Positions 16,630 to 52,741 of a stretch of 64,000 nucleotides of DNA are shown one piece after another. The stretch is from positions 1 to 64,000 of the forward strand of contig CAWDSK010000009.1 in NCBI GenBank assembly GCA_963804995.1. Direction: 5' to 3'. The notes beneath the pieces were generated by a model. It was not told the DNA's origin and searched no databases. It saw nothing but the letters and a program-made list of their open reading frames with translations. Every line of letters begins with the position of its first letter. The stretch's first letter is position 1. Origin of the DNA: an uncultured Acidobacteriota bacterium. Lineage in GTDB: Bacteria > Acidobacteriota > Terriglobia > UBA7540. The position numbers and the translations under genes are program-made.

Positions 16630-17785
16630 TCACTTCGCAGGCGCGGCGGCCTGCTGGATCGCTTGGATTACTTCTTCGCTCCCACCGGCGGCGCGGATGT
16701 CATTGAAGTCCCCAGAAGTCGGTGCGAACTTGATGCCGCGCTCCTTGATGAGTTCCGCCACACGCGGGTTGGGGACCCCACCCTGTAGCAAGGAAATAAT
16801 CTCTTCCTTGCCCAATGCATGCGGATTTGGCGGAGTTGCCTTGGGGGTGAAGTGGGCTACAAAATGGAAGTTGGATTTTGACTGGGCAGCGCTTGTGGCA
16901 ACGATCTCGAAGGGATTATCGCCGGGCTTGAGGGTGAGGGGATCAGACCAGAACTCTGCGACGTCCGCGCCCTTGGGCCGCAGCGCTGCGGGGGCGCCGT
17001 TGATCGTTATGGTGGGGAGACCCGAGTTACTCATGGCTACGCCGCGAATAGTGAGCGGTGATTCATTAAGCTCGACCGTCTGGTTCTCGCCCACCCCGGA
17101 AGGGGCCATGACCACGACCGTCGGCGGAGGGGGCGGTGGCGTAGGATTGACCACAGGCACAACGGGGGGTTGCGTTACAACGGGCGGTGGCGCAACAGGT
17201 CGCTGCTTGGCCTTGACCTCCGCCACGACCCCGTCAAAATTCTGCAGCGCCTGCACGATCATGGGGGAGTAAAAGGCATCCGACTTGGCGATGCTATTGA
17301 CAGACGTGTCTGCTGAATCCGCGGCATCCCAGTGGTTTTGCGGTGAGTAACTGAAGAAATGCCTCAGCTTATTTGATCGGAACTGGGCGGCGCCGAATTC
17401 CATCTGCAAGTCGGTGATTTCTGCCCGGCTGACGTCAAATCCTGAATCCGCTTCCTTGGTGATCCGCGACGGTCTGATCATGATATACCGCACGGCCCCG
17501 CGGCTGATTTCAAGCCAGCCGTAGGACGCCCTGATCCGCGGCTTGATCAACGTCCAGTTAAGACTGGAGTGGCCAACCGGAAGGCGCAGGGTGGGATTAG
17601 TATCGGCACTGAGCAGTTGAAGATCATCAGGAATAGCCGTGGGCCCCTGTGGCGGCGCCGGTAGCGCTGCGGCGCGCCTCTGCGGCGGAGACAAGGCTCG
17701 AGCCCGGCGCAACCGCAACACAACCTATCCCTATCGTAAGGGCCACCAAGAAACCGATGTATTTTGAGGGTCTTTCTCGTGCCAT
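16630..17785 (-). CDS. Exported protein, tandem paralog 1 (frameshift near 17685)
   Basis: Signal peptide MARERPSKYIGFLVALTIGIG... from ATG 17785 in another frame; body homologous to the three upstream paralogs. Confidence 0.75.
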
Positions 17786-17933
17786 TTTGCAAGGTTCTCA
17801 GACCATTGGATTCTTTGGAAATATCGAGGTGCGCACCCGCGAGATGATTTCGCTGTCGCGCGAGAGGGCGAAACCGCAAGCGGGCGTCCCACGCCGAAAT
17901 TGCTCTTGAAGGGCGACTCAACCCGGCGCTCCG

Positions 17934-19085
17934 CTAGGGGTGTGCCGCAGCCTGCTGGATCGCCTGGATCAGCTCATCGGTTCCGCCCTCAGTACGAATT
18001 TCATTCAGATCGTCAGCCGTGGGCGAAAACTTGATGCCGCGTTCATGGATAAGTTCCACCATTCGAGCGCTGGGGACTCCACCCTGAAGCAAGGAGATGA
18101 TCTCCTGTTTGTCCAGGGCTCGTGAATTGACGGGCGCGGCCTTGGGTGTGTAATGAACGGAGAATACGAGGCTCGCCTGCGCGTGCGCCGAATTGGAGGC
18201 CGTAATCTGGATGCGGTTACCTCCCGGCTGAAGGGGCAGCGGGTCCGACCAGAATTCGGCTGCCTGCGGGGTCTGGGGCCGCATATTGACGGCCGCCCCG
18301 TTAATAGTGACGACAGGAATACCGGTGCTGTCCATGGCCACCCCGCGGACGACCAAGGGGGTGTCATCGGTCTCGACGACCTGATTTGCCGCGGCGCCTG
18401 AGGGGGCCGAAAGCACGATCGCCGGCGGAGCCGTGGGGGCGGCAGGCTTGGGCTGCGGCGGTGGGCTTGCGACAGTTTGCACTACGACCGGTGGAGGGGG
18501 AGGAGCAGGGGGCTTTACCAGCGCGAGCACACCATCAAAATTCAACAGCGTCTTATAAATCGACTGCGTGCCCAGCTTTTCGCGGCCCGCAGCCATCTGG
18601 GACCCTGGAGCCGTGTGAATTGATCCCCAGCGATTTTGGGGAAGGTAGATAATCATCTCCCTCTTCTTGCCACTCTTGAACATCAAGAGATTATGGGAGA
18701 ACTTGAGTTCATTGATGTCAAATCGGGAAGCCTCAAACTCGTTCTTGGCTTTGCTCTGGGGTTGCACAACTTCATAACGAATAGAACTTCGGGTGATATC
18801 AAGCCAGCCGTAAGTAATGCTGAAGACCGACCCTGGCATACTTGTGATGGGGAAGCGAAGAGTGGGATCGGTGTCGCCATTCAAAAGTTGTGGGCGGATA
18901 ATATTACTCAAGTCCGATTGGGGGGTTCCCTTGGAGCCTCTGCGGGTAGCCCCCTTCTGCGCGGCTGCAGCCGAAGCCATAATGAGGATGATGAATAGAA
19001 TAAAAGCAGAGTGGCCTATATGCCAAGCTTTAGCATTCGGGCTCATCGGAGCGAAGCCTCCAATGTCTTCCAGATCAGGCGCCAT
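17934..19085 (-). CDS. Exported protein, tandem paralog 2
   Basis: Signal peptide, PQLLNGDTDPTLRFPI, Pro linker, EFWSDPLPLQPG Ig-like domain, helical C-domain. Confidence 0.85.
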   Translation of the reverse strand: MAPDLEDIGGFAPMSPNAKAWHIGHSAFILFIILIMASAAAAQKGATRRGSKGTPQSDLSNIIRPQLLNGDTDPTLRFPITSMPGSVFSITYGWLDITRSSIRYEVVQPQSKAKNEFEASRFDINELKFSHNLLMFKSGKKREMIIYLPQNRWGSIHTAPGSQMAAGREKLGTQSIYKTLLNFDGVLALVKPPAPPPPPVVVQTVASPPPQPKPAAPTAPPAIVLSAPSGAAANQVVETDDTPLVVRGVAMDSTGIPVVTINGAAVNMRPQTPQAAEFWSDPLPLQPGGNRIQITASNSAHAQASLVFSVHYTPKAAPVNSRALDKQEIISLLQGGVPSARMVELIHERGIKFSPTADDLNEIRTEGGTDELIQAIQQAAAHP

Positions 19086-19353
19086 CGATTCAACTCCCTG
19101 TACAGATTATCGGCTGTTGAGAAGTGAAATCTTATCTTTTAATTTCCTTAACGAACGCACAGCCGACCTTTTCCAGACCAAGCTGGCCGTTGTTATTCTA
19201 CCCCTGGCGGAGAGTTTCAACCAGCTTGTAGGCTGCTGGCGCCGTGGGCGCGTTGGGGGTCGTGTCGCCGGGTGGGCGCCAAATGCTTAAGGTGAGTACC
19301 AAGAGCGATCCGGATGAGGAGGCGTCCGGCTTGTCACGGGTCACTCAATTTCC

Positions 19354-19408
19354 CTCATGCTCAGCGTCGAACCCACCGATAACCGATACGGGGAAGTGCG
19401 TCGCGGCG
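19354..19408 (-). repeat. Isolated copy of the TCGGTTATCGGTGGGTT-N11-ATGAG motif
   Basis: Reverse complement matches array unit 1 at 47651-47735, including its downstream sequence. Confidence 0.85.
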
Positions 19409-19555
19409 GAGGCGGGGCACTGGTTTGGGGATCGGGCCATCGCGCCATCGGGCCATGCCGTAATTGAATAGCCCTCTCCGAGGGGAGTCCAACGTTTGGA
19501 CCCCGATGGGCACATGGTCACGAAGGATCTGCGCGGCGACACCATGGCTACCCGC

Positions 19556-20665
19556 TCACTTGGGTGGGGCGGCCGCCTGCTCGATGGCCTGGATCAGTTC
19601 ATCGCTTCCACCCTCCGCACGAAGGACTTTCAGATCGTCAGCCGTGGGTGAGAATTTTAGGCCACGCTCTTTGACGAGCTCCACGATTCGCGCGTTTGCG
19701 ACTCCGCCGTGGAGCAAGGCAAGGATCTCCTCTTTACCCAATGCCCGAGGATTTGGCGGCCCCGTTTTGGGCGTGTAATGAACAGTGAAGATGAGCTTCG
19801 CCTCTCCTCGCGCCGAGTCAGAAGCGCTAATCTGGAAAGGGTTATTCCCAGGCTGAAGCGGCAGTGGGTCTGACCAGAATTCCGTCGCTTGCGTATTCTG
19901 TGGCCGCATGTTGGCCGCCATTCCATTAACGGTCACCACCGGGATGCCGGCGCTGTCCATGGCCACACCCCGAACGACCAGAGGCGACTCATTCAGCTCC
20001 ACGACCTGGTCCGGCCGCGCACCGGCGGGCATGGCCAGCACAATCACGGGGGGAGAGGAGGGCGTGGCAGGCTGGGGCAGAGGGGGTGGGCTTGCGATGG
20101 GTTGTGCCACGACAGTCTGGGGCGGAGGAGTGGCAGCCTTCACCTGGGCCAACACACTGTCGAAATTTGATAGGGCGTTATAAATCGATCCTGTTCCCCG
20201 CTCCCCCAGGCTGGCGGCGTCCCAAAACGCGGGACCAGTGCGGACGCTTCCCCAGCGTTCTTCATCGAGGTAAAAGATCGTGTGTTTTTTTGCCCCCAGG
20301 CGAAACTTGATGCAGTTCTGGGATATCTTCATCTCGCTGACTTCCCCCGCGGTAGCGTCGAATGCTTCGTCCAGCTTCCCAGGGGGTTGGACCACCTGAA
20401 AGTGGATACCCGCATGCGAAATATCAAGCCATCCATAGACCATACTGGCATACAACATGCCGGCAAAGCTCGCAATGGGGTAGCGCAAGGTGGGGTTGGT
20501 ATCGGCATTCAGGAGCTGCGGTCCGATGCTGTCGACCGTGTCGGTAATGGTTTTCCCCGGGCGCTTCGAAGCACGTTGGGCTACCGCTACAGAAGCAAGG
20601 CAGATGATTAAGGATAGGAAAAGAACTTTACGGCTCAATCGAAATCCCCCGCGATTCAGACTCAT
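19556..20665 (-). CDS. Exported protein, tandem paralog 3
   Basis: Same architecture; PQLLNADTNPTLRYPI. Confidence 0.85.
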   Translation of the reverse strand: MSLNRGGFRLSRKVLFLSLIICLASVAVAQRASKRPGKTITDTVDSIGPQLLNADTNPTLRYPIASFAGMLYASMVYGWLDISHAGIHFQVVQPPGKLDEAFDATAGEVSEMKISQNCIKFRLGAKKHTIFYLDEERWGSVRTGPAFWDAASLGERGTGSIYNALSNFDSVLAQVKAATPPPQTVVAQPIASPPPLPQPATPSSPPVIVLAMPAGARPDQVVELNESPLVVRGVAMDSAGIPVVTVNGMAANMRPQNTQATEFWSDPLPLQPGNNPFQISASDSARGEAKLIFTVHYTPKTGPPNPRALGKEEILALLHGGVANARIVELVKERGLKFSPTADDLKVLRAEGGSDELIQAIEQAAAPPK

Positions 20666-20848
20666 CGGAGATTAACCTCTGCTTTCTTCCGACTCGAACC
20701 CTTATGGTTTGGCGACAACTCAGCCATCAGTCGCTGGCCATTCTTCCTCCAAGGGGACAAGAGTTTCAACCATTTTATAAGCTACTGCCGCATCGGTCAC
20801 CTTCTCGCTATTACTGACACAGGCATCACCCGCTCCGCCGTGAGGATG

Positions 20849-21065
20849 CTAGCGTGGTGTCCCGGTTAATATTTGACAAGGCTGTCCGACCCCCTCACCC
20901 CCCCCCCAGCCCCTCTGTCGCCGCGGCGACCGAGGGGAGAGTTAATTTTCTTGCCCTCGCCCCTTTGGGGGAGAGGGTGGCTGGCCGAGGCGTTCTCATC
21001 AGCCGAGGCCAGACGGGTGAGGGGGTTCTACCCATTGTCAACTCTAACGCGGGACACCACACTAG
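20849..21065. mobile_element. MITE-like element with CTAG ends and CCCTC core
   Basis: ctagcgtggtgtcccggttaatatttgacaa versus right reverse complement ctagtgtggtgtcccgcgttagagttgacaa. Confidence 0.65.
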
Positions 21066-21089
21066 CACCGTTCCAGGGGCAGGGTACAC

Positions 21090-22193
21090 TCACTTGGGTG
21101 GGGCTGCCGCTTGTTGGATGGCCTGGATCAGTTCATCGTTTGCACCCTGCCCGCGCAGGTCGTTCAGGTCGTCGGCGGTGGGGGCGAACTTAATGCCACG
21201 ATCCTTGATGATCTCCACTATGCGCGCGTTAGGGACCCCGCCCTGGAGCAAGGAGACAATCTCTTCTTTGCTCAGTGCCCGGGGATTAGGAGGAGCCGCC
21301 TTGGGGGTGTAATGAACGGTAAAGACGAACTTCGCCTCCGCATGGGCCGCATTGGAAGCAGAGATTTGGAAGCGATTATCCCCCGGCTGAAGTGGCAGCG
21401 GGTCTGACCAGAACTCGGCCGCTTGGTTGCTTTGCGGCCGCATGTTGGCAGGCACCCCATTAATGGTCACCACGGGAATGCTGGTGCTATCCATCGTCAC
21501 GCCCCGGACAACCAGGGGGGATGCATCCACCTCGACGACCTGATTAGCCCCCGCACCGGCAGGGGTGGAAAGTATGATCGCCGGTGGCGCAGCAGGTTGG
21601 GGCTCAACTGGGGGGCTCACGACGGGTTGTGGCGTCACAGGTGGGGGCGGGGCGGGCGGAGGCTTCACCATATCCAGGACGCTATCAAAGTTTTTCAGGG
21701 CCTGAAAGATCGATGCCGTCCCAAAGGCGCCCTCGCCGGAGATTTGCATCGCTCCCGGCCCGCTGTGGATGGCGCCCCAGCGATTCTGGGCGACGTAAAA
21801 GATCATGTGCTTTTTCGCCGGGATGCGGAACGAAATGTAGCTCTGGACCATCTTGATTTCGCTGATTTCCCCGCTAGAGGCGGCGAATCCCTCGTTCGCC
21901 TTCCCGGGAGGTTCGACCACGCTGTAGCGGATTCCGGCACGTGTGACATCGAGCCATCCGTAGGAGGCGCTGAAGACGGACCAGCCGGAGAAGCTGGCGA
22001 TTGGATACCGCAATGTAGGGTCAGTATCGGCATTCAGGAGTTGCGGTTTGAGGAGAGCCTCAACGTTGGTTTCGTCAGTCTTCTTGCCGCGCTTGGCAAA
22101 TTGCCCAGCCGGCGCAACCACCGTCACGCTCAGAAGGATGAACAGGAGACAAACCGTGCGGCCCATCCCCCAACCCTGGAGGTTGAGGCTCAT
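21090..22193 (-). CDS. Exported protein, tandem paralog 4
   Basis: Same architecture; start MSLNLQ matches MSLNRG of paralog 3. Confidence 0.85.
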   Translation of the reverse strand: MSLNLQGWGMGRTVCLLFILLSVTVVAPAGQFAKRGKKTDETNVEALLKPQLLNADTDPTLRYPIASFSGWSVFSASYGWLDVTRAGIRYSVVEPPGKANEGFAASSGEISEIKMVQSYISFRIPAKKHMIFYVAQNRWGAIHSGPGAMQISGEGAFGTASIFQALKNFDSVLDMVKPPPAPPPPVTPQPVVSPPVEPQPAAPPAIILSTPAGAGANQVVEVDASPLVVRGVTMDSTSIPVVTINGVPANMRPQSNQAAEFWSDPLPLQPGDNRFQISASNAAHAEAKFVFTVHYTPKAAPPNPRALSKEEIVSLLQGGVPNARIVEIIKDRGIKFAPTADDLNDLRGQGANDELIQAIQQAAAPPK

Positions 22194-22364
22194 CAGGAAT
22201 CCACCTCCACCACTATCCGTCTCGGGAACTGGCGATTCCACAGCCCCTATATACCATCGGCGGAACGAAGATGAAATCTTAATAATCTTCAACCCAGCAC
22301 GAGGCCGGTCCACCTCGAGGCTGGCAGTACATCATTTCATTTTGGGGGAGGGAGGAATAGGGAA

Positions 22365-27379: not shown

Positions 27380-29292
27380 GTTGCGGTAGGGATACCGGTT
27401 ACCCGGTACCCCCCGCACGGATCCGTACGTGCGCTGGTTAGCGCATACGGCTCTTATCTCGGATGTGTGGCGGCGAACCGTTGGGATGGCCAAGGATGCA
27501 CAACGTGCGGAGCAGGCAACCAGCAGGCCGCAAGCTTCCCCAGTCGGTCCCAGTTGAGGCGGTGGCGTTGACTGCGTTGACGCAGTTGTGTTCGCCACAG
27601 TCGGGTCAACCGTTCCCGAAAGATTCGCAGGCGGTCGAGGTTTCCCGGTACCGCGTGATAGTTGAAGTAGCCTTGCACGACCGACCGGAGCCATTTACCC
27701 GTATCCGCGATGGGATCGTGCCGACGCTGCCGGAGTTGTTGCTTGAGTTCCTGCAACTTCCCCCGCAGGCGCTTGCTGATCGTCTTCCGCTTCACGGTAA
27801 ATTGCCCCCTCCGGTTCTTCCCGCTGATATGCGTGAAGCCCAGAAAGTCGAACGTCTCCGGCTTACCTTCTCCTCTCCGTTTCCGGTAAAGTTCGGCAAA
27901 CGGCCCGAACTCGATCCGGCGCGTTTTGTCAGGATGCAGTTCCAATCCAAACTTCCCCACCCGCTCCCGGAAATCCTCCAGAAAGCGGTCGGCTTCCGTC
28001 TGCGATTGGAATCCAAGGACCGTATCGTCGGCATACCGCACCACGACCACGTCTCCCCGGGCGTGCTTCTTGCGCCACGCCTGCACCCACAGGTCAAAGA
28101 CGTAGTGCAGATAGATATTCGCCAGCAGGGGCGAGACCACCGCCCCTTGTGGCGTACCCATCTCCGTCTCCGACCATTCGCCTTCCTCCCTCACCCCGGC
28201 TTTCAGCCATTTCTGGATGAGCCGGAGAATCCGGGGGTCGGCGACGCGATGCTGCACGAACTTGAGCATCCATTCGTGGGATATCGAATCGAAAAATCCA
28301 CGAATGTCCGCGTCAAGAACGTAGTTCACGTGCTTCACCGTGAGCGCGTACGAGAGCGCGTCCAGCGCTTGATGCTGGCTGCGTCCCGGTCGAAAGCCAT
28401 ACGAGAAGCCCAGAAAGTCTTCCTCGTAAATCGCCTTGAGGATGGTGACCACGGCCTGTTGGACGATCTTGTCCTCCAGTGCCGCAACCCCCAACGGACG
28501 TTGCCGCCCGTCGCCTTTCGGGATATACGCCCTTCGCGAGGGCTTCGCTCGGAATGCTCCGCGGTGGACCCGGCTGTGCAGATCGACGAGTCGACCTTCC
28601 AGCCCGCTTTCATACTCCTGCCACGTCATGCCGTCTACTCCCGGTGCAGCTTTTCGCTTCAAGGCGTAAAAGCTTTCCCGCAGCAGATCGACCGTTAAGT
28701 GGTGGAGCAAGGCCGTGAACTTCATCTCCCTGTGTTCCTTCGCGGCTTTCCGCACACCCGCGAGTCCCTGGGACACGCGTGCCCCGCTCTGTGTCGGGTG
28801 CGTGTTAGGCCAACGGGTGTTCTCCTTGATCAGCGGCCTTCCCTCCTCATTCTCCGCCAACGGCTTCCCGTCTTTGTTCAAATGATTCATCGGTACTGTT
28901 CCGCTGTCCGACTCCTCGAAAGCGTGCAGGCGGGCTGTACGGCCATCGCCTTTTCCCGCCGTCCGGCCACGATCTACGGCGGCCGGCGCCTCCGAGGTCT
29001 CCCGGTTCTCGTGCAGAAAGTGTCTAGGCGTGTCTGGGGTCTACGACTACGCAGGACTGTGCCGGAACTCGCGTTGGCGTCCCGGCCTCATGTTGCCTTC
29101 CGTTTAGTCTGAAAACGTCGGCGTCCTGATTGGACATTTTCGAAGCTCAATACCCAGCCCACCTATTCCCCTGTTTACGCTTCACCGTGCGCCTCACGAC
29201 GCCCAGCGCAAAACTCGGGGCCGAGTGGATCGCTGCTCCTTCCTCGTGAGAAATTTTCATTCTCTGCTTTCTGCCGGTTTATCCCGGCGCAC
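27380..29292 (-). mobile_element. Group II intron, full length
   Basis: 5' GTGCG at 29292; D5 GAGCCGTATGCG..CGCACGTACGGATC, D6 and terminal AC at 27380; the flanks rejoin into an intact REP. Confidence 0.92.
27454..28890 (-). CDS. ltrA: Group II intron reverse transcriptase/maturase, no endonuclease domain seen
   Basis: APGVDG, RPLG, GFRPGRS, GTPQG, YADD, FDFLGF and GYFNYH motifs. Confidence 0.95.
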   Translation of the reverse strand: MNHLNKDGKPLAENEEGRPLIKENTRWPNTHPTQSGARVSQGLAGVRKAAKEHREMKFTALLHHLTVDLLRESFYALKRKAAPGVDGMTWQEYESGLEGRLVDLHSRVHRGAFRAKPSRRAYIPKGDGRQRPLGVAALEDKIVQQAVVTILKAIYEEDFLGFSYGFRPGRSQHQALDALSYALTVKHVNYVLDADIRGFFDSISHEWMLKFVQHRVADPRILRLIQKWLKAGVREEGEWSETEMGTPQGAVVSPLLANIYLHYVFDLWVQAWRKKHARGDVVVVRYADDTVLGFQSQTEADRFLEDFRERVGKFGLELHPDKTRRIEFGPFAELYRKRRGEGKPETFDFLGFTHISGKNRRGQFTVKRKTISKRLRGKLQELKQQLRQRRHDPIADTGKWLRSVVQGYFNYHAVPGNLDRLRIFRERLTRLWRTQLRQRSQRHRLNWDRLGKLAACWLPAPHVVHPWPSQRFAATHPR

Positions 29293-45369: not shown

Positions 45370-46704
45370 ATGAATTGCAAATTGTGTGTGAGAGTGTCTC
45401 TGCTTTTCTGCCTTTTCCTCACCTTGGTCGAACGTCCGGCAATAACCCCCGCCCAATCCGTCCCGCAAACGCCCAAGGCCGACCAGGTCACCTATGTGCG
45501 TTGCGGAACGCTGATTGACGAGAAATCCGAGGCGCCGCGCCAGAACGTGCTCGTCGAAATCGCTGGAGGCAAATTCCGCGCGGTTACGAATTACCCCTCG
45601 GGATTCGCCAAGCCCGCCGGCGCTGCCTTCCTCGATCTCGCTTCTGAAACTTGCCTGCCCGGTCTCGTGGAATCACACACGCACATTCTGCTGCAAGGCG
45701 ATCAAAGGCCCGGCCAATACGAAGAGCAAATTCTGAAATGGTCGCTTCCCTACCGCACGATCATGGGAACGCAGGCGGCGCGGCGCGCCCTGGAGTACGG
45801 ATTCACGACGCTTCGTGACCTGGAAACGGAAGGCGCCTACTACGCCGACGTGTCGATTCGTGACGCCATCAATCAGGGGGTGATTCCCGGTCCCCGCATG
45901 TTCGTCGTAACGCGCGCGCTCAACGTAACCGGGGCGTACCCGCTGCTCGGCTACGACCCGGCGTTGAAGCTGCCACACGGCGTCCAGATAGTAGATGGAC
46001 CCGATGAGTGCCGCAAGGCGGTGCGTGAACAAATTGGCAACGGGGCGGACTGGATTAAAATCTACGCCGACCAGCGGGTTTCCACCGCCGACGGCATCGT
46101 GCACAGCGTTCCCACCTTCACGCCCGAGGAACTGCACGCCATTGTCGACGAAACCCACCGGGAACACCACAAAGTGGCGGCACACGCCATGGGTTTGGAG
46201 GGATCCCACAACGCGGTGGAAGCAGGCGTGGATACCCTTGAGCACGGCGCTTACATCTCCGACGCCGACATGAAAACCATGGTGGCGCGTGGCATCTGGT
46301 ATGTGCCGACCCTGTACATCTTCATTTACGCTGACGAAATCCACCAGGCAGGCGGCTTCCCGGGATGGAAAGGTGGCTTGGAGATTCACGCGGAGACGTT
46401 TCGGCGGGCGCTTCAGGCGGGTGTGAAGATCGCCTTCGGCACGGACGTGGGCGGCTTCGAGTGGACCATCAATCCCGCGAAAGAGTTTTCACTGATGGTG
46501 AAGTACGGCATGACTCCTGCTCAAGCCTTGCGCTCCGCCACGGTTTCCGGCGCCACGCTGCTCGATCTCGAAAATGAGATTGGAACCGTCGAACCCGGCA
46601 AGCTGGCGGATCTGGTGGCCGTTCCCGGTAACCCCTTGAGCGATGTTAGTGTGCTCGAAAACGTGAACTTCGTAATGAAAGAAGGCGTGGTTTACAAGCA
46701 CTAG
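45370..46704 (+). CDS. Metal-dependent amidohydrolase (Xaa-Pro dipeptidase-like), exported
   Basis: PGLVESHTH, GFTTLRD, DWIK, AAHA, EHG, FGTD and GKLADLV motifs. Confidence 0.9.
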   Translation: MNCKLCVRVSLLFCLFLTLVERPAITPAQSVPQTPKADQVTYVRCGTLIDEKSEAPRQNVLVEIAGGKFRAVTNYPSGFAKPAGAAFLDLASETCLPGLVESHTHILLQGDQRPGQYEEQILKWSLPYRTIMGTQAARRALEYGFTTLRDLETEGAYYADVSIRDAINQGVIPGPRMFVVTRALNVTGAYPLLGYDPALKLPHGVQIVDGPDECRKAVREQIGNGADWIKIYADQRVSTADGIVHSVPTFTPEELHAIVDETHREHHKVAAHAMGLEGSHNAVEAGVDTLEHGAYISDADMKTMVARGIWYVPTLYIFIYADEIHQAGGFPGWKGGLEIHAETFRRALQAGVKIAFGTDVGGFEWTINPAKEFSLMVKYGMTPAQALRSATVSGATLLDLENEIGTVEPGKLADLVAVPGNPLSDVSVLENVNFVMKEGVVYKH

Positions 46705-47359
46705 GGCGCGCCGGACTGATGTTCACGTGACGGGTTTCACTTGATCCCATCCCAATTCGTTCCTGGTTAACCTGCGGACCTGTTTTGTAGCGCGGTCCCC
46801 CGTTTTTAGGGTCCGCGGTTCTTCCTTTGGAAATTCCGTCAATCTCCAACCTGAGCTGCTGCGCCACCACGGCCTCTTCGCCACGATAGGTTCGATCAAA
46901 TAGGAGCGTAGCGCGGACCTCCGATTTTGAGGTCCGCGGCTCTTCCTGCGAAAAATCTCAGACCTCCGCTGGTTTCGGATTCGGTAGCGTGAACTTAACG
47001 AAGAACCGCAGACCTCAAAAGCGGAGGTGCGCTACGCGGGCTCCGTCACTCAGCGGTCGAGTGAGAGTGTCGTAAGACGTGTCCACACCATTCGGCCGCG
47101 TCAGGGAAGTCCGCCGCCCCGCAAAGCTCGGGGGTAGGGATTCGGGGGTGGGGATTGGGGGGTGGCGCATACGTGGCGTATTTTGGCATGTATGCGGTCA
47201 CAACGTTCGGTTTATATGCAGCGGTTGCGAAGTGACTCCTCATTCGTTTTTCAGCGCATACCCGTAATTCCCTTATCAGCACCACCCCGGCGCTCAGCCC
47301 CGATCATCAATTTGGAAAGAACGCGCTATCGGGGCTCAGCGCGCCACCCCTCCTCATCT

Positions 47360-47458
47360 GAGGCGGTCTCACAACTGGCAAATTCACGGTTTTTACAACG
47401 AATAATCAATAACTTACGCTGTGCAAAAGTCAGAAATACCTAGTTTTGGGACAGCCTC
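47360..47458. mobile_element. 99-bp MITE with ATCT target duplication, inserted in a palindromic repeat
   Basis: Ends gaggcggtctcacaa / reverse complement gaggctgtcccaaaa; ATCT at 47356-47359 and 47459-47462. Confidence 0.6.
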
Positions 47459-47650
47459 ATCTGAGGCGGGGAGTGTTCTTAAGAACTCCCCTCCTGATTC
47501 AGAGCCTGCCCTGAGCCTGTCGAAGGGAGGGGTGGCGCCGTAGGCGACGGGGTGGTTATCCGCGGTCAAGCGTTCTTCGGCGGGCGGTAACACCCCACCC
47601 TATCTGGCCGTAGCGAGAAATACGGCCAAAGGTATTACCGCTCTCCCCAC

Positions 47651-49060
47651 CGCCGGGACACACTTCCCCGTTTCGGTTATCGGTGGGTTCGACGCCAGGG
47701 ATGAGACAAATTGAGTGGCCCGTGACAAGCGGCTTGACCCCTCACCCGCCTGCGGGCCGAAGCTGAAGTCGTTTACATCTCCCAGGTGTCCCTTCGGAGG
47801 GCGTAGGCGCGTCCCGCCCCGGCTGGTGAAAACGCCGGCGGCGGTCCACCCTCTTCCGCCACGGCGGACCTCCGGCCCCTCGGAGCGGGCTATGAATTTT
47901 CGCCTGGGGCTGATGAAGCGATCGCCCGATCACCGGATGGCCCGATCTCCCGATTACCTGACCCCGCCGTGACACACTTCCCCGCTTCGGTTATCGGTGG
48001 GTTAGCACCAGAACATGAGCCAAAATTCGGCTCGAAGTTTGACAATCACCAGGTCACCCAATCGCAAAATCAATCAAGGACCCGATGATCCAATGATCCG
48101 ATCGCCAGTTCACCCAATGACTCGATGGCCCAAGTGGAAGATTGCCGCGAGCAAGCTCGGAGCGAGGAAAGCGGCAGTCCGCCGCGGCGGACTGCACTCC
48201 AAAACTTCGCGTGCGGCTTCTCCCTTGCTGCCTTCTGCTCTGCCCACCTGAACCGGCCTGCACACACACCGCCGTATCGGTTATCGGTAAGTTCATGACG
48301 GAAGATGAGCTCAATTCGGCGGCTGCGAAAATGGCAATCACTTGCAGGTCCTTCAATCGACCGATCGCAAGATCACTCAATGGCCCGATGACCCGATGGC
48401 TCGATCATTCGATCACCGGGTTGCCCACCCCCGCCGTGACACACCTCCCCGTATCGGTTAACGGTAGGATCGTACCAGGACATGAGGCCACAGAACGATA
48501 ATCGGGAGGTGGAAGAATCAGGCAATGGAAGTTTATTCGCTGGGCCGGGGGTTCGAGGCCGAAAGGATTACGCCGAGTCCGTCGCCCTCACCGACTTAAC
48601 CACGGCCGTGACACTTCCCCACTTCGGTTATCGGTGGGCTGGCGAGGCAGGATGAGGTTGCAAAAACCGGGCCGAGGGTTCTGGACAGGGAGGATTGAAC
48701 ATTGAGACCCGGCCTGACCGACTTGGCCGTCACCATGACACTCCCCCAAATCGGTTATCGGTGGGTTGGCACGGGAAGATGAACTCAATTCGGCTATTCG
48801 GGGGTAGCCATGATCCGTTGGCCCATGGTTCGATAACCCAATCGCCGGTCAACAGATCTCCCGATGGCCAACCCCGGCCGTGACACTCCCCCAAATCGGT
48901 TATCGGTGGGTTGGCGCCGGAGCATGAGCCAGATCTGGCCAATCGAAAGTTGTCAGTAACTTCCTGGTCCGCTGATTTGATCACCCGATCGCTTGATGGC
49001 TAGTGCCCGAAAGACCCTACCCAATTTTGGTTTCCGGTGGATCGGACCACGTATATGGGC
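47651..49060 (+). repeat. Non-coding array of 7 clear plus 1 eroded ~50-bp motifs with unique intervening sequences
   Basis: ATGA(G) anchors at 47701, 48015, 48305, 48482, 48652, 48779 and 48924 (eroded ATGGG at 49055), each 11 nt after a TCGGTTATCGGTGGGTT-like core. Confidence 0.9.
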
Positions 49061-49515
49061 TGCAGAATCAATGACTTAAATACCATGGTCGTAATCCAGC
49101 GAGGGTGGATCCCCGGGCGAGAACCCTGCCAGACCGATGTGCCGCTTATTAGGTTAGCGGGGCTTCACCCGGGCGGGGCTCGAGGTGGTCTGGCCTCTGC
49201 CGCCCTCTATCTCACTCGTTTGTGGCGCAGACTTCGCGGTTTGGGTAGCCACCTCTATCCTTGGACCTCGTGAGCCCGCCAGAGGTGATCTGGCCATGAA
49301 CCGGACTGGGGAATTCTAACTTGGCGTGACTAAGATGCCCGAACCGGGCAACTTGCCAAGTCCCACCTTAACTCCGAGGCCCCGCTCTTCCCACCCCTGA
49401 TGGAAGAGGCAAAGTCTGGTCAGAAATTCCGAGAGTGAGAATTCTCCAATACTTGGGTAGAGGAGCTTGCGTCGGTGATCGATACAGTATGGAAACAAAT
49501 CTGGTACGAGGGGTT

Positions 49516-49977
49516 TCAATTAAGGTGCGGGGAAATTGGTCTGATTGCTTGGGGAAGATGCGGTTCTGGGAGCTTGACAACCTCTACACAAACCATGGTC
49601 AGCCCAGCGCCCACGAAGCCGAGGGTTTTTGCCGCTGACCAGGAGACATCGATTACACGTTCGGCGGGCCCAGGGCCCCGATCATTGACCTTCAGAAGAG
49701 TGGATTTGAGGTTTGTGAGGTTTGTTACACGAACCATCGTACCCAGCGGTAGCTTCCGATGGGCAGCGGTAAATTTATGTAAATCAAAGGGTTCTCCGCT
49801 GGCTGTGGGTTTGCCTTGCCGCTCGATTCCGTACCAGCTCGCCAAGCCGACCTCACCTTTGGGCAGTGCCCGTAATACCAGCGGCAACGGAGCGAGTGGA
49901 GCCGGAAGTCTTGCTTCGGTCTGCGGTGAAAAGGCCATAATGCCCGCCACCGCGCAACCCATAACCAATTTCCTCAT
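49516..49977 (-). CDS. RlpA-family (DPBB) septal ring lytic transglycosylase-like protein
   Basis: GLASWYG, TASGE, TAAHRKLPLGT, VNDRGP and IDVS motifs. Confidence 0.9.
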   Translation of the reverse strand: MRKLVMGCAVAGIMAFSPQTEARLPAPLAPLPLVLRALPKGEVGLASWYGIERQGKPTASGEPFDLHKFTAAHRKLPLGTMVRVTNLTNLKSTLLKVNDRGPGPAERVIDVSWSAAKTLGFVGAGLTMVCVEVVKLPEPHLPQAIRPISPHLN

Positions 49978-52124: not shown

Positions 52125-52512
52125 CTCAACGGGTGCTCGCCCCCGTCGATAACCGAGCTGGGGGAGTGGAGGCGGCCGGGGTGGGGACGATCAGAAAAAG
52201 CTGGAGCGTCGGGCGGGCGTCTGCCGGAGGACCGGGAGCTGTGCCGTCGCACGAAGGTGGGCAAGGGGTAGGCACTGCGGGAGTATTCTTACTCGCTCCC
52301 CTGCCTCCTTCCGCCGGTTACCGGTTGGAGGAGGTGTGGCACGGGCGGGATGGGCAACCCGGTGATCGGATGATCGAGCCCTCTGGCCGTTGAGTGATCT
52401 TGCGAGCGGGCGCTTGAAGGACTCGCAAGTGATTCCCAGTTTCCCAGCGACCGAATTGAGCTCATGTTCCCGTGCCAACCCACCGATAACCGACACGGGG
52501 GAGTGTGTCACG
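52125..52512 (-). repeat. Second, inverted mini-array of the same motif (1 clear plus 2 eroded units)
   Basis: Unit at 52461-52512 plus the following ~130 nt resembles array unit 3 and its junction to unit 4; eroded cores near 52325 and 52155. Confidence 0.8.
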
Positions 52513-52741
52513 GACGCGGCTAAGTCGGCTCAGTCGGTCAGGTTAGCTGTCATCCCTGCCTCCTTCTGGGATCGAGCCCTCGATTCAGCCTCGACCGCCC
52601 TGCGCCGCGGTGAAGCCTGCTACAACATCCGTTGTTGAGACCGCGGGCCGTCGTTGTTATGATGTGGCTGCCTGTTCCGGACTTGACGCTCCGGGCAGTC
52701 ACCGCGTTACGAACGCGGCGAGACTATCACGAGGAGATACG

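Follow-up and report, generated by a model that had tools for sequence, protein, structure and literature searches.

The non-coding array at positions 47651..49060 of the window (the whole 64,000-nt stretch analysed, C9:1-64000) is probably a lineage-specific expansion of a genus-restricted modular repeat, the conserved head of which is a predicted sigma-28-class promoter. As judged from sequence, the repeat is an undescribed promoter-bearing module; no description of it was found in the open-access literature covered.

Seven co-oriented units had been reported in the preliminary description of this DNA. Their start-to-start spacings (314, 290, 177, 170, 127 and 145 nt) were all reproduced, with cores at 47673, 47987, 48277, 48454, 48624, 48751 and 48896 (Table 1), and the 11-nt windows of variable sequence (N11) were as given (cgacgccaggg, agcaccagaac, catgacggaag, cgtaccaggac, ggcgaggcagg, ggcacgggaag and ggcgccggagc). 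The ATGAG beside N11 had been taken as fixed. The ATG proved dispensable, and the fixed element is NTGAR, with A in ~80% of anchored copies. An eroded eighth unit (49027-49059) does end the array, but no gradient of the proposed polar decay was seen: exact cores occur in units 6 and 7, cores with 2-3 mismatches in units 3 and 4, and only unit 8 is dead. Matches of the tails to the genome by blastn, self included, numbered 27, 7, 2, 1, 1, 1 and 2 for units 1-7. At up to 3 mismatches, 9 core matches were found in the window against 0.11 expected. Two of these cores lie outside the array, both exact and on the minus strand (19370-19386 and 52477-52493), and the search was therefore widened to the whole genome.

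Table 1. Features of the window and related loci. Boxes, starts and promoters are predicted; positions without a contig or locus prefix are those of the window; scores are from the HDOD-promoter matrix, and the number of genome positions (of 15.1 million) scoring as high is given where available.
Feature	Position	Strand	-35	-10	Start	Score (bits)	Remarks
Unit 1 head	47645..47706	-	CTCAT 47705-47701	CCGATAA 47683-47677	~47669	15.5	170 positions as high; conserved G-rich leader; promoter points at 3' end of amidohydrolase gene
Unit 1 tail	47707..47956	+					large tail family; hairpin insert and 8-nt repeats
Unit 2 head	47957..48020	-	48019-48015	47997-47991	~47983	20.7	56 positions as high
Unit 2 tail	48021..48246	+					octamer repeats and REP-like hairpin
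Unit 3 head	48247..48310	-	48309-48305	48287-48281	~48273	15.5	leader partly eroded; tail 85% identical to tail of head at 52493
Unit 4 head	48424..48487	-	48486-48482	CCGTTAA 48464-48458	~48450	15.0	-10 one change from CCGATAA
Unit 5 head	48597..48657	-	48656-48652	48634-48628	~48620	15.5	
Unit 6 head	48725..48784	-	TTCAT 48783-48779	48761-48755	~48747	10.3	490 positions as high
Unit 7 head	48869..48930	-	48928-48924	48906-48900	~48892	20.7	
Unit 8, eroded	49023..49059	-	CCCAT	CCGGAAA		-1.6	both boxes damaged; leader lost
Second family member	52459..52522	+			~52497	20.7	head on minus strand, promoter reads +; faces ORF at 52610; degenerate head near 52168
Third family member	19353..19416	+					head on minus strand, promoter reads +; between two paralogous genes
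Four paralogous tandem genes	16630-22313	-					363, 383, 369 and 407 aa; repeat head between two
Group II intron with RT ORF	27454-29257	-					one of ~38 near-identical copies
Amidohydrolase gene (PF01979)	45370..46704	+					flanks array; convergent with predicted transcripts
Three GTAG-type REP hairpins	46787..47035						left of array; separate repeat family, in path of leftward transcripts
Short segment	47352-47469						bounded by 15-nt direct repeat; probably insertion-sequence remnant; holds an IHF-like word
rlpA-like gene (DPBB_1)	49516..49977	-					flanks array
Rearrangement junction	49060-49515; C1:419 kb						head clusters on both sides
Candidate native sigma-28 promoters	C2:719819, C4:55620, C6:1011867, C1:636949, C6:1753973, C6:1720746						outside repeats
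Candidate native sigma-28 promoter	31442	-					outside repeats
FliA gene	C2:295 kb						
Extra FliA/WhiG-like sigma genes	C9:163 kb, C4:210 kb, C6:5 kb (L087-L089)						~40% identical to FliA
RAYT subclade gene	C3:777557-778105 (L259:558-1106)						right REP abuts truncated head at C3:778.15 kb
Further RAYT subclade gene; fragment	C2:467478; C5:498.9 kb						
RHG loci, own genome	C2:725158-726312, C2:130794, C2:501438, C3:26953-27876, C4:37084-38394						
RHG loci, relatives	L023:2536-3870, L040:2748-4412						
RHG-type derivative	C6:156324-158345						heads on both sides; interrupted by inverted ORF-less group II intron-like segment (judged by eye)

The genome (7.55 Mb, 9 contigs, 92% complete) contained 145 core matches at up to 3 mismatches. 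A profile search gave 212 hits in 85 clusters of 1-7; the reversed-genome control gave 3 hits, the best at 15.8 bits. Hits below 20 bits were dropped, leaving 84 clusters, each of which is single-strand and essentially intergenic. The exact pattern was found in 15 of 28 genus relatives at 1-19 copies each, against 98 in the own genome. A looser pattern was present in 7 of 8 genus members, in 2 of 68 other members of the family (one copy each) and in 0 of 324 genomes from other families. A scan of GTDB gave at least 69 loci, and the matches listed were all titled Terriglobia or Acidobacteria/Acidobacteriota. One DNA sequencing run yielded scattered related pieces only. Profile scanning of the genome and pattern scans of relatives delineated a genus-restricted family with ~210 own copies, a repeated DNA module of a group of soil and peat Acidobacteria. 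Tandem arrays occur in relatives too, with other tails and with periods near 97 or 175 nt; longer and more homogeneous arrays of the head were seen at L036 (9 copies, ~175-nt period) and L075 (8 copies, ~97-nt period). Counted by replication strand, which was assigned on a weak skew, clusters divided 38 vs 22 (24 ambiguous, p=0.05), and this bias was set aside.

Read on the minus strand, the unit has the form YTCAT-N17-CCGATAA-CCGAnnn-GGGGRAGTGTG. A bank of alternative-sigma promoters had been among the readings first proposed. This type of signal was supported by the promoter geometry of an HDOD gene and by a weight matrix, both described below, but the strand is opposite to the one assumed and N11 falls within the spacer. 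The flagellar consensus, in the available text of PMC8325347, has -35 TAAA and -10 GCCGATAA, and the -10 box of the repeat is identical to the one published there. A box of the GCCGATAA type, CCGATAA, was found in 160 of 208 anchored heads and in 6 of the 7 array units. It is preceded by G in about half of the own copies, in 74% of the relatives' copies and in 0 of 7 array units, which have A instead; G precedes CCGATAA at the native HDOD and fliC sites. With a pattern omitting the -35 box, TGA was found at a fixed offset in 92/98 own copies and in 72/81 distinct copies from relatives. The left part of the head, by contrast, tolerates 2-nt indels. Hundreds of scattered single copies lacking a fixed N11 had been named as evidence against the first readings. 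Some 210 copies do exist, but in these samples the fixed spacing is kept.

Predicted fliC promoters in the genus have the form TTAAG-N15-CCGATA (17 of 19 sites found among 23 loci), and sites of the form T(T/A/C)AAG-N15-(C/T)CGATA precede the own fliC, flgM and cheA genes. Since the spacing of the repeat is one base longer than that of fliC and T stands at the fourth -35 place, native sites of the exact form of the repeat were looked for. The HDOD gene behind motAB, in the flagellar cluster, has a predicted promoter CTCATG-N16-CCGATA ~33 nt before its ATG. The comparison of this site comprised 24 rows, one of them without upstream DNA. Among the 23 scorable genomes, CTCATG, CTCACG or CTTATG was at the exact spacing of the repeat in 22, and in the remaining one the spacing was a base shorter. 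A RAYT subclade shares both boxes, its ATG following the -10 by 7-8 nt (6 of 30 loci, two own and four in relatives); these six loci are all at least 74% identical, and more distant RAYTs have TATACT-type boxes. From the RAYT distance, the predicted +1 was placed at a pyrimidine-purine step that is present in 183 of 208 copies of the repeat. On the fixed TGA offset and the HDOD and RAYT geometry, N11 was assigned to the putative spacer, ATGAG to the -35 box and the core to the -10 box. The head is very probably a sigma-28-class promoter motif.

The weight matrix was built from the HDOD promoters of 21 relatives only, with zero repeat sequence, and 15.1 million genome positions were scanned. 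Repeat heads accounted for 60 of 65 sites at 20 bits or more and for 157 of 243 sites at 14 bits or more. Array units 1-7 scored 10.3-20.7 bits. Five of the seven scored 10-15.5, below the native training range of 18.5-25.9, so the array promoters may be weak. In total, 133 intact repeat sites were counted, and other sites with either geometry number no more than 39 (156 minus 133, plus 16); the genome seems to hold more such predicted signals in repeats than before its own genes. Candidate native sigma-28 promoters outside the repeats lie before HDOD, Reg_prop and PAS-like genes (Table 1). No sigma-70 promoter was found, and the one terminator-like site was not above shuffles. For E. coli, the available part of PMC4183435 reports that most extra FliA sites are without detectable RNA and that some yield small or antisense RNAs.

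The FliA gene scored above the TIGR02479 cut-off, and three related sigmas, flgM and flagellin genes are also present in the genome. The FliA query matched 28 of 29 genomes, so correlating the repeat with FliA presence was impossible. At least one FliA-like paralogue is encoded in most genus genomes. The HDOD promoter used as the yardstick is itself predicted, and its sigma could be a second FliA-like paralogue rather than FliA. The promoter of the RAYT subclade is apparently leaderless, of sigma-28 type and conserved in four relatives. Every RAYT encountered has separate hairpins on its flanks, and heads above noise were found at 1 of 30 RAYT loci (own genome).

At the orthologous site, no head was found 3' of the rlpA-like orthologue in 24/24 relatives (flank mostly 1.5 kb, in three <300 nt). 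In 13 of these 24, one conserved gene directly follows rlpA; here that gene is on contig C1 (~419 kb), directly behind another head cluster. As there is no head at the orthologous site and this neighbour gene lies on another contig here, the array is recent and sits at a rearranged junction. A comparison of filled and empty sites for target-site duplication gave no clean pair, orthologous sites being rearranged or differently filled. The genome gave 49 RVT_1 hits, among them the ~38 near-identical copies of the group II intron of the window.

An orphan helical protein, 'RHG', occurs in multiple copies in 28 of 29 genus genomes, with as many as 25 matches per genome, many of them interrupted by stop codons, and near-identical and broken copies of the family occur across the genus. 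On its 5' side the gene is preceded by a sharply defined left end, with a palindrome of 16 bp and a sigma-70-like -35, and it ends in A-rich repeats that resemble IHF sites. The list of left ends in the own genome had 42 rows; one was the palindrome read from the other strand, leaving 41, mostly internally deleted derivatives. A same-strand head follows within 3 kb in 17 of the 41 and an opposite-strand head in 1. A-rich RHG repeats lie upstream on the same strand at 25/84 clusters, vs 0.2 in control sets, and at 15/67 loci in relatives, with 0 opposite or downstream. At 59/84 clusters, the present array included, there are no RHG repeats within 1.2 kb upstream. A head was found downstream of the RHG gene at 4 of 110 loci (two being the same locus, one in the own genome), many of the flanks being short. 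For the phosphodiesterase-family gene of the window, 16 regions were fetched from relatives and 11 were scorable; the RHG gene or its repeats lie upstream in 5 of the 11, one of them with a head, and one further relative has both the RHG element and a head at this gene. The link between RHG and the head is real but not obligate. At the right end of RHG, the predicted head promoter faces into the element, against the element's sense promoter.

Two RHG proteins gave no hit in Pfam, and 91 RHG alignment members gave scattered weak hits only in NCBIfam. The structure model is all-helical (pLDDT 77) with generic coiled-coil matches only, and in the ESM Atlas RHG falls in unnamed Acidobacteriota clusters. 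The RHG protein was considered as the mobilising enzyme and rejected for want of a catalytic fold in the model and family searches, an absence of a listed fold that excludes nothing; no mobilising enzyme was thus identified. RHG behaves like an undescribed, transposon-like mobile element. A search for four-helix-bundle genes gave 15 hits.

Variation in the left half of the head follows the DNA upstream of it, and variation in the right half follows the tail. Recent mosaic pairs change over at several points in the head, a pattern better matched by recombination or gene conversion among short homologous heads than by the action of a site-specific enzyme. A single fixed point of recombination, as the earlier reading of the units as recombination sites had implied, is not borne out by these scattered crossovers. 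Simple repeats and fragments of REPs abound in the tails. The array is, with high probability, a shuffled local expansion. On the non-template strand, the 40 nt that follow the predicted start are rich in G (57% and 47%). A G4Hunter score of at least 1.5 was reached by 55% of 188 predicted 5' regions vs 4% of random intergenic windows; relatives gave a lower figure (20% of 66 copies). Retro-copying would leave, on the right edge, half heads that stop at the start site; this signature was sought and rejected, as left-half-only copies are mostly on the left side.

In the favoured account, the ~60-nt head would act as a minus-strand promoter (-35 YTCAY, 17 nt, -10 CCGATAA), with the transcript starting at the first G of the conserved GGGGRAGTGTG leader. 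FliA holoenzyme would bind and fire the heads. Their home position may be the right end of the RHG element, where the inward promoter would oppose the sigma-70 promoter of the element and yield an antisense RNA. Heads would reach new loci with non-autonomous RHG derivatives and REP-associated DNA. Duplication, together with recombination or gene conversion within the head common to all units, would enlarge and reshuffle arrays, perhaps with help from R-loops over the G-rich 40 nt at the 5' end of the transcript. From the seven promoters of the present array, a nested set of non-coding RNAs would run leftward. Because these transcripts would serve no gene, selfish or near-neutral DNA is the likeliest status of the array, with any load on the FliA regulon a side effect.

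The common strand and the tail order within clusters could also be produced by an integron-like cassette system, in which a recombinase excises and inserts units at the invariant core: every cluster is single-strand, the tail families are reused in different orders, and, around the core, linkage to the upstream family gives way to linkage to the downstream one. We regard this as highly improbable. The mosaic switches are spread over several places in the head, the tail or the -35 was joined through ATGA microhomology alone at two loci, and the cassettes are without genes. No attC-like hairpin with complementary core sites was found in the heads, and no transposase or recombinase family recurs beside the 84 own clusters and the 69 relatives' loci listed. 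Searches of the genome for IntI (TIGR02249) and for an IS91-type Y2 transposase gave no hit, the control in each case likewise being without a hit. The preliminary description had also proposed small RNAs with a scaffold and a guide-like segment. Such a reading would make the locus a CRISPR- or TIGR-like guide-RNA array in which N11, of fixed length and variable sequence between conserved boxes, is a programmable guide. That fixed length is accounted for by the promoter reading, and N11 travels with the downstream tail family and so is not a guide: within tail families one N11 sequence is repeated 13 times and others 9 and 8 times, and N11 identity is 0.62-0.88 in tail-sharing pairs against mostly 0.2-0.5 in unrelated pairs (one position 0.69). 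Exact N11 counts in the genome were 3-40 vs shuffled means of 3-19, 11-mers being too short for such a test. Neither strand of the head shows a conserved structure (folding z averages +0.2 to +0.5; no consensus structure among 239 non-redundant heads). Rfam placed no family in the array, with three sub-threshold, chance-level hits in 46700-49500. The 92% complete genome had 0 cas1 hits (control positive in 7/14), the repeat and its N11 had no match among phages, plasmids and viral contigs, and no effector gene recurs beside the own clusters or the relatives' loci listed. The guide-RNA reading is already largely refuted, and we give it almost no credence. A CRISPR array was rejected, since the spacings of 127-314 nt are not uniform and tails recur in families. 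Peptide coding was likewise rejected: in line with the earlier remark that peptides are not conserved, the start triplet varies across copies, and only 10/188 heads lie inside a long ORF call.

That the motif is the site of another protein (a transposase, a recombinase or a mobile-element sigma), or the leftover of a captured promoter, and is not transcribed by FliA appears distinctly unlikely. Conservation does reach past both boxes, CCGA after the -10 and the leader being conserved beyond promoter requirement, the spacing and the -35 differ from fliC, and two of the three extra FliA-like sigma genes are in mobile-looking regions. Against this stand the exact match to HDOD and RAYT promoter geometry and the divergence of the spacer (129 N11 sequences among 188 copies) with boxes and spacing kept, which is not the behaviour of a leftover. 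A device selected by the host also seems unlikely, whether a sigma-28 sink (decoy bank) or trans-acting small RNAs with a common 5' end, for example RNAs antisense to mRNAs with the plus-strand repeat in their untranslated regions. The number of intact repeat sites relative to other sites, the conservation of the leader across the genus, the co-orientation of the plus strand of the repeat with both flanking genes (34 clusters vs 13, p=0.003) and the recurrence of heads at parA (3 loci) and at the phosphodiesterase-family gene (here and in 2 relatives) would agree with such a device. It is opposed by copy numbers that run from 0-1 to >100 in one genus in which nearly all members have FliA, by the absence of the array from the orthologous site in 24 relatives, and by the lack of a conserved structure or terminator and the abundance of simple repeats and fragments of REPs in the tails. 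It is rather unlikely that the head powers a novel class of selfish element with its spread tied to motility. Transcription of the G-rich leader under FliA would then open an R-loop or G4 and set off copying and shuffling of modules; alternatively, the leader RNA would feed one of the many group II intron reverse transcriptases of the genome. Help would come from the RHG element and from a RAYT under FliA control, and a burst to ~210 copies would titrate the flagellar sigma factor.

Promoter-carrying repeats are known to rewire bacterial genes, with sigma-70-like promoters in the cases reviewed in the available part of PMC10969869. An alternative-sigma repeat outnumbering native sites ~3:1 or more could divert an entire regulon or dilute it and, if the favoured account is true, would bring dozens of start sites, antisense or gene-driving, under the control of motility. 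With 0 to ~210 heads per genome and FliA in nearly all members, the genus is a natural copy-number series for sigma-factor titration. The predicted sites would also constitute the first promoter model for the flagellar regulon of an uncultured acidobacterial group. The analysis further brings out a RAYT subclade that seems to share this control and a transposon-like protein element, uncharacterised and multi-copy, without a known catalytic fold.

Antisense or inward promoters occur at insertion-sequence ends, as in RNA-OUT of IS10, and the head at the RHG end would resemble these in being a convergent promoter at an element end. Unlike RNA-OUT, it is at the 3' end and not over a translation start, is of predicted sigma-28 class, and its partner is without a transposase fold. 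In Neisseria pilE, the garP promoter starts a non-coding RNA in a G tract and triggers gene conversion (PMC13463697, available part); the likeness, a G-rich start beside gene-converting sequences, is an analogy only, as pilE has one site and protein-coding cassettes and the present genome has hundreds of sites without coding cassettes. Like pneumococcal BOX and enterobacterial BIME elements, as far as the accessible text of PMC3049150 and PMC3333891 describes them, the repeat forms a modular intergenic mosaic with variable tandem modules mixed with other repeats. Unlike them, its module is unstructured and promoter-like and its units are co-oriented rather than REP/iREP pairs; neither a GTAG palindrome nor a hairpin was found in the heads, as the preliminary description had recognised in separating the motif from REPs. 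Correia elements of Neisseria are promoter-bearing MITEs, their promoters being named only as sigma-70-like in the available part of PMC10969869. The repeat shares with them small size, non-autonomy, intergenic position, a high and lineage-variable copy number and a predicted promoter; it differs in having no terminal inverted repeat (an inverted copy of the left end of the head was found within 200 nt downstream of 0/188 heads), in its alternative-sigma class and in its shuffled tandem arrays. Sigma-28 (FliA/SigD/WhiG) promoters, in the sources as available (PMC8325347, PMC4183435), likewise have the -10 CCGATAA and a bipartite structure with a fixed spacer. From these the repeat is set apart by its ~210 copies and tandem arrays, mostly pointing at no gene, and by a -35 of YTCAY, a spacing one base longer than that of fliC and a conserved leader past the predicted start.
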